From Eledone cirrhosa (taxonomy: Eukaryota): a stretch of 64,000 nucleotides of DNA. Position 1 is the stretch's first letter. Every line of letters starts with the position of its first letter. Where the stretch lies: the NCBI GenBank assembly GCA_964016885.1, contig OZ024740.1:388120001-388184000 (forward strand). Direction: 5' to 3'. The notes under the pieces were generated by a model. That model was not told the DNA's origin. It searched no databases and was given only the letters and a program-made list of their open reading frames with translations. Positions 12,079-24,546 of the stretch are shown here, piece by piece. The position numbers were made by a program, and so were the translations under genes.

Positions 12079-12850
12079 TAATTATCATATGTTGTTTATT
12101 ATCTTATGTTATTATCTTATGTTGCTTAACTATTAAACTCTGTAACCTACATAGAGCACTCTTTTTTCCTGGAAATTTCCGACGGAATTACTTCATTCAC
12201 ACATATATATATACAAATAAAGATTCAGCGAGAATCGCATTTTCGGCGGGCAGGAAAAGCGAAGCGAAACGCACAAATCATAATTGATACGGGCAAAGTG
12301 ATCAACAATGTATTAAGAAGCCATACAAAACTGAAAAGGTGGTCAAGAAAGCATTAACCACACACACACACACACACACACACACACACACACACACACA
12401 CACACACACACACACACACACAAACCCACACACACACATATATATATATATATATATATATATATATATATATATATATATATATATATATATACATATA
12501 CATATATGTATATGCAGACGCACACATACAGAGACCGAGACACACACATAAATACATACATACATATACATACATACATACATCTATCTATCTATCTATC
12601 TATCTATCTATATCAAATCTAGCTGCCGTCTGTTCTACAGTGTGGATGTCATTCACTTCGCACAGAAGTTTTGTTCAAATTTATTGAGGAAATTTTGTGA
12701 GTTCAAACTTAATTTTGATACAATTGTGTAGCTTGACCCTCCGTCTGAACTGTCAGGCGGTGGGTCAGCTCATCTTTACCCCTCCTAGAGGTGAAAAACC
12801 TGTTTTAAAAAAAAAAATTTTGTGTAAAAAATTTCAATCGTCTAACAGAA

Positions 12851-14728
12851 ATGTTAAACGCAGCGAACGAAAATAGTGGTGGGGGGACAGCGGTAAGAGT
12901 TGTAAGCTCGCACGCTTTAGTCCTCCCTTCCTTCCCAACTAACGTCATAGAGAAGGAAGGAAAAATGAAAATAAAAACGGACGAATCTGCGGAGAAAAAA
13001 TTAAATGTCGAAAACAACGAAGAAAAAAAATTTGAAAAATTGCATGACAATACTAATAACACAAACAAAGACACAACAAACAAAAAAATAACAGTTGAAA
13101 ATAACATAATATCAGAAAACAAAGCAGACGACAAGACTTCATTTGCACAGAAAACAAAGAAATCTTTGACTTATATAGCGGAAAACATTTCAGATGTGGT
13201 ACGAAGGATCACGGACGCAAAACAATACATAAGTGAAGGTGAGAATGGTATTTTATTGGTAAAAATGCCTCAAGAATTCACGAAAGACATTGAAAGCCGA
13301 ACGGTCAAGTTTCGGACCATCAACAACAGTACAAAAAAACCTGAACAGCCTTCTCAAGCAGATATCAAAACAGTACTCGCAGAAGTACTGAATGAAACAA
13401 CTTTCATAAGAAAAGACAGACTGTATGGAAGCCTAGCAATTATCATGAAGAACGAATCGGCGGCAAAAAAATGTGCTTTGTCACCGATTCGTTCGAAAAA
13501 TTTCACCTTTTATCCATCTTATATGGGGAAAAAAACTCAACGCATATGGCTGGACGCAATGATGCCAGATGTGGACTACTGCTGGCTCATAGCTGGCTTC
13601 ATCGATCCAGTGAATGACAACGTGATTTCCATTGGGAAAACCACAGGCAATGCGTTCAGTGGAACAGGTATAGAGCTGGTAGTACAAATGAAGCCTGAAC
13701 GCATCGCCCAAATACCCGACAGAATCCTATTAGAGGACCACGGGTATATAAACATTAGCGTGGAGGGGAGAAGGCCGTCCTGCCATATCTGTGCAGGCAG
13801 AGGGCACCTGAAGGCCGCTTGTCCCCAACTCAACAAAAAGAAAACCCTGCTACCAACACCAGCTCCACCACCACCACCACAACAGATAAACAAACAACAA
13901 AACTCAGTCCCACCCAACCCGTCCCTCAGTAACACCACAACACCACCACAACACAAACAGTCACAACACATTACCCCAAAACAAAATACAGGCCCACCCA
14001 ACCTCTCACTCAATAAAACAACACAACCACCGCAGACACAACACACAACACAGTCTAACATAGTGACATCCATCTCCCCCACAAAGAAAACCAACACGGA
14101 AACATTACCAGCAAACATACCTCTTCCCTCCAACACTGAAGATAACCCAACGAATTCGGAGGAAGAAACGGAGTCCTTCAGACAGATTAAAAGGAAAAAA
14201 AGAAAACATGTGCAAAACACACAAGGACAAACAACCCCCACCCAAATCGCAACACAATCTAACAAAACAGAAAACACCCCTCCAGCAACAAACAAAACCA
14301 AACCTGCCCCTCCCCTCTTCGAAACACTCACACCATCGGAAAAAAAGACACTACACTATACTTACATCAACAGAAACAATAATAAATTAAATGAACTCAT
14401 ATACAATAATCCTTCGGTACAAACCGAAGGTGTAAACTTTGTTTCTTCAGAAAACCACCCACATTTAAAACTAATAAAAATCCCAATGAACCTCTACCAA
14501 AAACTAAAAAAGGATTTTAAGGAGGACGTAGGACCACCCTCTGTCAAACCCATAAACCGCGTCCTACTAAAAAGCTTTCCCCCTCCCCTTCCCCTCCCCA
14601 ACACAACTCCAAACACCCCAACCCCACCACACACCGACGACCCCACACCACCACAAGACACCCCTTCACCCAACACCCCCGACCCCATGGAAGTCGTGCA
14701 ACCCGAACCCCGGGAAGCGGAAAGGTAG
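12851..14728 (+). CDS. Tx1 ORF1p (CCHC zinc knuckle, Pro/Thr/Gln-rich linker)
   Basis: 625-aa ORF with CHICAGRGHLKAAC (CX2CX4HX4C), directly upstream of ORF2. Confidence 0.9.
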   Translation: MLNAANENSGGGTAVRVVSSHALVLPSFPTNVIEKEGKMKIKTDESAEKKLNVENNEEKKFEKLHDNTNNTNKDTTNKKITVENNIISENKADDKTSFAQKTKKSLTYIAENISDVVRRITDAKQYISEGENGILLVKMPQEFTKDIESRTVKFRTINNSTKKPEQPSQADIKTVLAEVLNETTFIRKDRLYGSLAIIMKNESAAKKCALSPIRSKNFTFYPSYMGKKTQRIWLDAMMPDVDYCWLIAGFIDPVNDNVISIGKTTGNAFSGTGIELVVQMKPERIAQIPDRILLEDHGYINISVEGRRPSCHICAGRGHLKAACPQLNKKKTLLPTPAPPPPPQQINKQQNSVPPNPSLSNTTTPPQHKQSQHITPKQNTGPPNLSLNKTTQPPQTQHTTQSNIVTSISPTKKTNTETLPANIPLPSNTEDNPTNSEEETESFRQIKRKKRKHVQNTQGQTTPTQIATQSNKTENTPPATNKTKPAPPLFETLTPSEKKTLHYTYINRNNNKLNELIYNNPSVQTEGVNFVSSENHPHLKLIKIPMNLYQKLKKDFKEDVGPPSVKPINRVLLKSFPPPLPLPNTTPNTPTPPHTDDPTPPQDTPSPNTPDPMEVVQPEPREAER

Positions 14729-14761
14729 GTCTCTACACTCTCCTTTGGCTCTGCCGCCCAC

Positions 14762-23500: not shown

Positions 23501-24017
23501 CCAGAAGTCACTGGCCTGGCAGTGCTACCGAGGGGCTCTACCCGTTCGAGAGAGGCTCTACAGACACGGGCGCCCGGGCAGGGATCCCTCAAAAAAGATT
23601 TGCCCTAGATGCGTGCGTCACGAAGAAACCGTGGCGCACGCATTGGTGCAATGTCCGGGCGTGGCTGATCTGTGGGGCTACGCCGAACAACTGCTGTCGC
23701 GGGTGGCGCCGATTAAATTGACAGCCGAGTCCGTGATGACAATCAAACCGCCTCCCCTCTTCACAAAGGAAGCAAAGGCGGTTTTTCTGTGCGTAATAGC
23801 CATGTTGAAAGAGGTTGTTTGGTGGACACGATTGAAAGGTCTGAGGTCAGGCAACTTCCTCTCTGGCCATAGTCTGGTCTACTTCTTCCGATATCACTTC
23901 GGAAGAAGGATAAGAATGGAGAGAGAGGTGCTTGGCCACAGGCAGTTTTATGAAAGGTGGGTGATAGTGGCGAGAATGGCTCGTGTAAATGGGCCTTCTC
24001 TGTATACCATCCTGTAG
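20580..24017 (+). CDS. Tx1 ORF2p (copy A2), apparently intact
   Basis: 1145 aa with RQGCPLS and YADD intact. Confidence 0.97.
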   Translation: MDVLRVGCLNARGLGSTWKQAKLLNDLRSCSINVMVICETRISVMRQLAPTFDDFEVHASLCQPGGGGGVVVLLQKHLGLAVQVVHSDPEGRLLVLDVGSSESAALRLVAVYSPFGAERPDFFQRLETFLGTSRSLLLAGDWNDILDARWDYAGACPNRGGCNSLKGLLDRFNLVDRYRLDFPTVPTWTWRNHSGQSRSYLDRFLVRSKDRDILSCPEMRTVGYTDHKLVTCVVNLEKTHRQGPGYWKLNLSLPAKETYRNRISRLVKERLTGAIVNNRWWASLKREIRTESISYSKMLAANRNRNEKELTGKLEEAIKSEDVARVLASRTALNQFFDAKHEGCVIRSKIRALGNEGAKAVGWARVTEAKSGNRSTIRSLQDEDGRVIREPKQMCEAFQKHFARLFGGGEGPGRGVNFGPYLDGLPRLSNKEAESCEGPISADEIGDALSQCSRRKSPGLDGIPYELYLAMPVFFSELLEAVYCNWQQNGRIPCSVAKGVVTLVRKDENKGDSINNFRPITLLNTELKILAKVLAKRLALVVGGLVGDAQTCAIPSRSIHDNLHLMRYIIERVGNKPGFGGALINLDQSKAFDRVDHGYLDAVLAAAGFGPVFRGWITALHSNHICSRIKVNGYLSKPFEITRSIRQGCPLSSLLYVLTLEPLLRKLELLQGIPLEPGLSKAVSAYADDVTVMVSTDSEIEAIGTLLEEYERLSGAKLNREKSIGLQLGTWRGRPMPPDGVVGHWTEGPVKLLGVWFGPDLQVEKNWNEVTNKVFALTQKWAKCKLSLKGRAEVANIYIASVTYYRLTVVPCPKETLTTMERMLFQFLWKKRPPMVRRSICCQQPSKGGLGMPWLMMRRHALRLRHLQVFLTGQPVWAPFVKRAFPRLVSLTELQSWVKQRSGKLGDWHTECAQALRALWQAGRAIGGESTSSFYRGLVASRGDDTLGESLDMEEDELASLFGRTFGPGPMDNFQKSLAWQCYRGALPVRERLYRHGRPGRDPSKKICPRCVRHEETVAHALVQCPGVADLWGYAEQLLSRVAPIKLTAESVMTIKPPPLFTKEAKAVFLCVIAMLKEVVWWTRLKGLRSGNFLSGHSLVYFFRYHFGRRIRMEREVLGHRQFYERWVIVARMARVNGPSLYTIL

Positions 24018-24546
24018 GTAAAGAAGTAAAGGAGAGGGGAGCACCTTCTCCATGTGCTCCCCGGGCAAAGGATTGCACACTTTTTCGGGGGTGTGTGCAA
24101 CCCCCATCACGTCCCCTCCCTTTTGAGGTTATTTTCGATTATTTTCATGTTACACCCTTTTTACTCGATTATATGTAAACTCCCCCTTTGTATTAGTCCC
24201 TTCTTTTTATGCCTTTATGGTAAATAAAGAAATCTATCTATCTATCTATCTATATATATATATATATATATATATATATATATATATATATATATATATA
24301 TATAGAGAGAGAGAGAGAGAGAGAGAGAGAGAGAGAAAGAGAGATAGATAGATAGATAGATAGATAGATAGATAGATAGATAGATAGATAAATATACACG
24401 GGTGTGTATGATTGTGTATAGAAGATTATATTAATAAGAGGAATTCCAACTTTGTCTGATTTACTCGTTTTATTTACAATCCTTTAAAATTTATAATGGT
24501 ATTATAGTGAAATAGTATGATAGAATATTAAATGTTAAGTGTTAAT

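Follow-up and report, generated by a model that had tools for sequence, protein, structure and literature searches.

Tandem Tx1-like retrotransposons within a (TCTA)n repeat of Eledone cirrhosa: a candidate microsatellite-targeting LINE family

Introduction

In the genome of Eledone cirrhosa, two full-length copies of a long interspersed nuclear element (LINE), here called A1 and A2, lie in tandem with a run of the tetranucleotide TCTA before, between and behind them. The window analysed is a stretch of 64,000 nucleotides (nt) of contig OZ024740.1 (assembly GCA_964016885.1, positions 388,120,001 to 388,184,000, forward strand). The locus raises the question whether the family represented by these copies, family A, selects (TCTA)n as its insertion target, or whether the repeat came with the element, was there by chance, or was placed between two copies by the assembly. 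The answer that we consider probable is that A is a microsatellite-targeting LINE of the L1/Tx1-like kind, that a duplication of about 16 bp of TCTA recreates its target, and that two successive insertions into (TCTA)n produced the locus. The argument is built on the observed anatomy of the copies, their open frames, the conserved residues of their endonuclease and the repeat at three junctions.

Results

The repeat at the junctions

The order at the locus is (TCTA)7-A1-(TCTA)4-A2-(TCTA)5, with A1 and A2 head to tail and the repeat in the same orientation throughout. The runs are listed in Table 1 as (ATCT)7, (ATCT)4 and (ATCT)5, which are the same runs with the reading register moved by one base. 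This layout had been proposed in an earlier note made from the sequence alone, and it proved accurate. With three runs at three junctions, the repeat stands on both sides of each element, as a target-site duplication would give. The length of such a duplication floats inside the repeat, and is at most 16–20 bp for the later insertion. An ATAT follows each (ATCT) run and leaves a 4-nt uncertainty in the 5′ boundary of A1 and A2; the 5′ end of a sister element in the same window, B, starts with a similar AATAT, which favours ATAT as part of the A element.

The 5′ run of A1 has the same unit and orientation as the 3′ side, and continues a host (ACAT)n repeat. A tail alone gives repeats at 3′ ends only, and therefore does not explain TCTA at the 5′ flank. 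The claim of the earlier note that TCTA is present on the 5′ side too, and not just as a 3′ tail, is borne out at this locus against the local background: in the 42 kb that remain after element masking, counted on both strands, an (ATCT) run of at least four units ends at most 4 nt upstream at 57 of 84,058 strand-positions (6.8e-4), and a microsatellite of any kind stands upstream of 8.8% of the host positions. Six runs of at least three ATCT or AGAT units occur in the 64 kb, three of them at the A1/A2 junctions, and since element-free TCTA runs are present elsewhere in the window (36752 and 49060), the site could predate the insertion. A published criterion for a microsatellite-specific family is the repeat in more than 20% of flanks family-wide (PMC4494074; here and below, statements from the literature go as far as the accessible parts of the sources). 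TCTA flanks two of two A copies, at one site, and a family-wide preference of A for TCTA/GATA, read from this one flanked site, is plausible.

Table 1. Coordinates of the features discussed (window positions; for the related arrays, locus names)
Feature	Position	Strand	Remarks
(ACAT)n host repeat	12542..12583	+	Leads into the TCTA run; belongs to a compound microsatellite beginning near 12359
(ATCT)7, A1 5′ flank	12582..12609	+	Left copy of the target-site duplication likely inside
Element A1, full length	12610..18413	+	5′ end 12610 or 12614
A1 ORF1, 625 aa	12851..14728	+	CX2CX4HX4C zinc knuckle, then long Pro/Thr/Asn-rich stretch
A1 ORF2, 1145 aa	14762..18199	+	APE endonuclease, RT, C-terminal zinc motif; codon 650 Ser instead of Pro
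A1 3′ UTR, T-rich	18200..18413	+	AATAAA (18405–18410) then GAA, without poly(A)
(ATCT)4, A1/A2 spacer	18414..18429	+	Likely 16-bp target-site duplication (20 bp with the next ATAT counted in)
Element A2, full length	18430..24231	+	5′ end 18430 or 18434
A2 ORF1, 626 aa	18666..20546	+	
A2 ORF2, 1145 aa	20580..24017	+	Exo_endo_phos 23–227, RVT_1 512–755, zf-RVT 976–1032
(ATCT)5, A2 3′ flank	24232..24251	+	
(TA)n-(GA)n-(GATA)12	24252..24389	+	TA/GA part also ends the second copy of the adjoining fold-back element
Sister element B	53758..59525	-	69% nucleotide identity in ORF2; frame-shifted
Related arrays in a bacterial bin (G001)	L004–L039, L042, L044, L047–L055		
ORF, open reading frame; aa, amino acids; APE, apurinic/apyrimidinic endonuclease-like; RT, reverse transcriptase; UTR, untranslated region.

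Two intact copies of a Tx1-like element

A1 (12614–18413) and A2 (18434–24231), each of 5.8 kb, align end to end over 5,803 columns with 99.55% identity. They differ by 18 substitutions and two indels: 5 nt within a run of A's in the 5′ UTR, and 3 nt, in frame, in ORF1. ORF1 and ORF2 are free of stops in both copies, and both 3′ ends read AATAAA-GAA without poly(A), with a possible tail of at most two or three A's. The description of the pair in the earlier note as young, intact and full length, with open ORFs, the same ends, no poly(A) and scattered differences, therefore stands. One difference that it did not mention lies in the QGCP motif of the RT, where codon 650 of ORF2 encodes Ser in A1 and Pro in A2. 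We rejected this Ser as proof that A1 is dead, since QGCS is found in another family as well (P0007, P0086); as far as the motif can tell, the change need not have inactivated A1.

ORF2 matches the Pfam families Exo_endo_phos (5.8e-8), RVT_1 (5.8e-27) and zf-RVT (7.9e-6, barely below the cut-off). The nearest solved structure is human L1 ORF2p (E 3e-50, residues 8–855), and R2 matches over the RT only (E 2.5e-20); L1 and R2 are the sole clades represented among the 10 matches of this comparison. The catalytic positions of the endonuclease are conserved and align with those of human L1, and the endonuclease hairpin has the length of the L1 hairpin and aligns with it without insertion or gap. 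ORF1 has no Pfam match at E≤0.1. Atlas look-alikes of residues 90–340 of the A2 protein carry zf-CCHC or ZCCHC3-type RNA-binding domains (scores 0.90–0.92), and the CCHC knuckle fits an ORF1 of Tx1 type, with an RNA-recognition motif (RRM) and a CCHC knuckle, as opposed to Transposase_22; the RRM in A is a lead only. An ORF1 with RRM and CCHC knuckle is consistent with Tx1 in non-mammalian animals (PMC5203782). By their sequence, A1 and A2 are APE-type retrotransposons without long terminal repeats (non-LTR) of the L1/Tx1 group, and the type of ORF1 together with the likeness to L1 takes the label as far as Tx1-like.

Sister element B is flanked by a different repeat

On the opposite strand of the window, B repeats the flanking pattern of A with another unit: the repeat on its 3′ side is also found on its 5′ side. 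The 3′ end reads AATAAA-GAAAAC and is followed by (ATT)13 (53757–53719), and the 5′ side carries TTATTATTATT at 59536–59526, which is 11 nt of (ATT)n. In the masked sequence, at least three ATT units stand upstream of 171 of the 84,058 strand-positions. A second piece of the B 5′ end, 131 nt long, lacks the ATT run, so the run is not part of B. The endonuclease domains of A and B are 58% identical, and their hairpins differ at several positions. Judging by the 3′ junctions of both elements, the lower strand may have been nicked first, at a TpA step.

The surroundings of B are crowded. Upstream of it, 59526–64000 on the minus strand holds a pile of further relatives, among them a broken copy, C (about 63800–59850, minus strand), which stops abruptly in the 131-nt piece of the B 5′ end, and a 172-nt ORF2 piece at the window edge that is 97% identical to B. 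An abundant repeat of about 160–200 nt with short ATT tails, resembling a short interspersed nuclear element (SINE), is found at 53433–53717 and in about nine other places of the window, and two of its copies are stacked in ATT runs at the 3′ flank of B.

Related elements form head-to-tail arrays

Searched with an alignment, bacterial genomes yielded 43 loci; with a single protein as the query they yielded none in 52 stretches. The metagenome scan gave three loci (24–34%), and viral contigs gave no match to the 3′ junction motif and none in 149 stretches. Contigs C3–C15 and C17–C19 of a metagenome-assembled genome (MAG) labelled Arenicella (CAXXMW01 in GTDB; G001 in Table 1) are packed with related elements, and are most likely misbinned DNA of an animal or host in a bacterial bin. 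Near full-length matches make up 57 of the 84 in this bin, 56 are without a stop, the identity is 41–42%, and the elements run along the same strand, with 12 units on contig C9 and several subfamilies interleaved across the arrays. These arrays are notably long and may merit a separate study. LINE ORF2 relatives (27–31%) in other bacterial MAGs (L040, L041, L043, L045 and L046) are probably eukaryotic contamination. In a quick RT tree of 63 rows, which includes unnamed relatives and, far from A, a fungal protein that its source calls TX1, the elements of the Arenicella-labelled bin fall within the clade that is sister to A, B and P0001 (Shimodaira–Hasegawa-like approximate likelihood ratio test, 100).

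In nine stretches, all 20 of the 3′ ends of these relatives have AATAAA(G) as their last letters, with neither poly(A) nor a microsatellite, and 18 are followed by a related spacer of about 16 nt; the spacers are not microsatellites. Thirteen ends continue through the spacer into a full 5′ end and three into a 5′-truncated copy, while three others run into flanking DNA and one comes from another subfamily. Rfam has no match in the window and none in four stretches flanking arrays, and thus no RNA-gene target was found. Judged by these junctions, the sister lineage arranges its copies head to tail and keeps a short spacer between them, comparable to the (ATCT)4 of A. The array building suggested for A in the earlier note thereby gains from the short-spacer arrays of its sister elements. 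It is no peculiarity of microsatellite targets, however, given that the spacer in the relatives is non-repetitive.

Two insertions or one insertion copied

Among the coding substitutions between A1 and A2, 8 of 14 are synonymous. Random changes that keep the observed mix of transitions and transversions give a mean of 4.4, and eight or more in 3.9% of 20,000 draws (P=0.039). Part of A1 is present in 17 of 21 public sequencing runs listed, five of which hold half of it or more; no RNA run is among the listed runs that hold A1. Reads and contigs of four of the 21 runs were placed on 15500–21300, and the figures that follow come from the best 40 of 876 differences. At 18810, the 3-nt deletion of A1 accounts for a contig depth of 1,045 of 7,922 in run X2 and 8.8 of 13.2 in run X5. 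The A1 letter at 20264 has a depth of 12,929 of 18,946 in X2, and is found in 279 of 301 X19 reads and 217 of 235 X20 reads. One X2 contig, with a depth of 2,604, is identical to A2 at 18441–18550, a segment that contains a third diagnostic site; four of the seven other X2 contigs listed have depths of 10–55. Both the A1 and the A2 forms look like family-level variants, and together with the synonymous excess, deep alleles on both sides make two source copies more probable than either a local duplication or a merging of haplotypes. A1 and A2 look like separate insertions.

If instead a single insertion had been followed by an unequal exchange that copied element and spacer, the TCTA site could be a matter of chance, or of a weak preference for microsatellite-rich DNA. 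The identical ends of A1 and A2 fit such a history, and so does the rate at which some microsatellite precedes host positions. In the relatives, moreover, L048 is a tandem pair of truncated copies that share their breakpoint, which indicates that local duplication also builds arrays. The substitutions and alleles given above point to different source copies, however, and B shows the same pattern with its own unit, which would leave local duplication as an improbable origin of the pair.

The earlier note had also named an assembly that joined two haplotypes of a single insertion end to start, and a difference of 0.3% would fit two alleles. No junction-spanning read is found among those listed for the four runs, and neither the tandem nor the flanks of other copies are confirmed in reads. 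The spacer of 16–20 nt has a unit count of its own, however (four, compared with seven and five), and such a join would need reads that hold the junction. Nor would the decay of alleles be expected to favour synonymous changes, and the sister clade commonly forms tandem arrays. Disfavoured also by the family-level alleles, merged haplotypes are a very unlikely source of the tandem.

Discussion

How the insertions may have occurred

In the mechanism that we propose, the ORF2 endonuclease would nick the GATA strand at a TpA step and leave a 3′ T. Reverse transcription would then begin at the RNA 3′ end right after AATAAA, with almost no poly(A) copied, and a nick in the TCTA strand four units (or 20 nt) further would give the duplication. 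One of the two duplicated runs could subsequently be taken by another RNA, transcribed from a different source copy. Element B would act likewise at (ATT)n.

The same junctions could arise if the specificity lay in the RNA, with a read-through (UCUA)n tail that pairs with nicked (GATA)n and an endonuclease that cuts TpA with weak specificity. Under either scheme the targeting of TCTA would be real. Several features speak for pairing: no poly(A) is copied at the ends of A; at three of three array ends of the relatives the initial 11 nt of the spacer are found again, as a carried tail would be; and the hairpin of A aligns with that of L1 without insertion, whereas the tip of the Tx1L hairpin is more extended (PMC1950540). 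Pairing of tail and target has been proposed for RTE, with R1Bm and the I factor cited as further cases (PMC6007223). On the other hand, the Tx1L endonuclease nicks its own target almost exclusively in vitro (PMC1950540), a strong AATAAA stands at the very end of the A element, and the tails here, of four and five units, are no longer than a duplication. We regard pairing as a rather unlikely basis for the targeting.

Several observations weigh against endonuclease-led, successive insertion into (TCTA)n. Besides the L048 pair, the absence of junction-spanning reads among those listed and the recurrent spacer ends already mentioned, the TCTA site is a single one, and A1 and A2 are not independent evidence if the second insertion merely followed the first. 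The synonymous excess is based on 14 changes only, contig depth is not copy number, which qualifies the allele depths, and among the loose ends and joints listed none lies at the junction (18401–18439 was skipped as repeat in X2, and rows were dropped in X20). In the relatives, the spacer does not look like a clean duplication: at the sole array start read, L047, just 7 of 11 positions agree with it, and the spacer at the end of that array (L052) is different again from this start. At B, SINEs with ATT tails occupy the same site and crowd its 3′ flank, and ATT runs could be a general insertion hot spot.

Comparison with known targeting elements

Among the Tx1 families of teleosts, Kibi is found in (TC)n and Koshi in (TTC)n (PMC4494074, PMC3812793), and eight crocodilian Tx1 families are found in (TTCC)n or (TTTC)n (Tx1-1_Crp, Tx1-5_Crp, Tx1-6_Crp, Tx1-1_Gav and Tx1-2/3/5/8_AMi; PMC4494074). 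As for these families, A is a two-ORF, APE-type LINE of the L1/Tx1 kind that is embedded in a short tandem repeat and bordered by it at either end, but its unit, (TCTA)n, is outside the targets listed for them in the accessible parts of the two papers. Tandem copies of SINEU-3 sandwich one 16-nt target-site duplication and were read as sequential insertions (PMC4494074). The A1/A2 tandem around one candidate duplication of about 16 nt resembles SINEU-3 and Tx1-Mar, although these two target a Mariner transposon and SINEU-3 is a non-autonomous element (PMC4494074).

The endonuclease of Tx1L from Xenopus is specific in vitro, where its hairpin matters and about 10 bp are recognized around the first nick (PMC1950540, PMC1919474). 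Tx1L is the model of endonuclease-led targeting, and the parallel to the mechanism favoured here for A. Unlike A, it targets a transposon, Tx1D, and its hairpin tip is extended relative to L1, where that of A aligns gap-free.

Dong belongs to the R4 clade, and Waldo and Mino to the R1 clade, whereas A and B are nearest to human L1 among solved structures. These three non-LTR elements target microsatellites, namely (TAA)n for Dong, (ACAY)n for Waldo and (AC)n for Mino (PMC3812793), and sister element B is flanked by the unit of Dong. The targets named in the accessible part of that 2013 review are ACAY, AC, TC, TTC and TAA, without TCTA.

Octopus vulgaris has 80 L1-Tx1 families, of which 13 were recently active with 421 insertions (PMC13282606), and A may be one of these recently active families. 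No target preference is given for them in the parts of the paper and of its supplement that the search covered. A literature search found neither a LINE that targets TCTA/GATA nor a target preference of an octopus Tx1 in the parts of the sources available, and Repbase and Dfam, which lay outside this search, may list one.

Other features of the window

Directly to the right of A2 lies a fold-back element (24391–26745) with 984-nt arms that are 98% complementary and a 338-nt loop. A shorter copy at 31390–31874 is a perfect hairpin with 242-nt arms, and each of the two copies ends, on one side, in a (TA)n(GA)n tract. Because this tract is common to the end of the second copy, the TA/GA part of 24252–24389 is assigned, by sequence comparison, to the fold-back element or to its target. 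The (GATA)12 at 24342 was considered as a part of the A element and rejected, as the TA/GA tract of the fold-back element comes before it.

A frame of 319 aa on the minus strand (480–1439) resembles, by eye, the C-terminal end of another LINE ORF2 in its second half. A 300-nt direct repeat (43176–43475 and 43719–44018) has copies that are 97% identical and 543 nt apart.

Implications

The targeting of microsatellites by LINEs is a known mechanism, and the possible novelty lies in the (TCTA)n unit, of which an earlier description in Repbase or Dfam is quite possible. If the preference is family-wide, (TCTA)n/(GATA)n would be a new unit, and probably come from a new host group, for microsatellite-targeting LINEs. 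How APE endonucleases read simple repeats was described as "not well understood" in 2013 (PMC3812793), and A would provide an intact ORF2 for testing it. With their different flanking units and endonucleases that are 58% identical, A and B would allow a direct test of repeat reading.

One may go further and suppose a radiation of sister Tx1-like families that share out the microsatellites of the host, A with (TCTA)n and B with (ATT)n, and whose sister clade forms arrays that reach 12 copies and span about 70 kb. We hold this to be possible but doubtful; if true, it would offer a natural panel for the residues that switch repeat specificity, including an intact candidate GATA-repeat endonuclease. 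For the host, targeting of this kind would mean that GATA marker loci may be broken by insertions of 5.8 kb.

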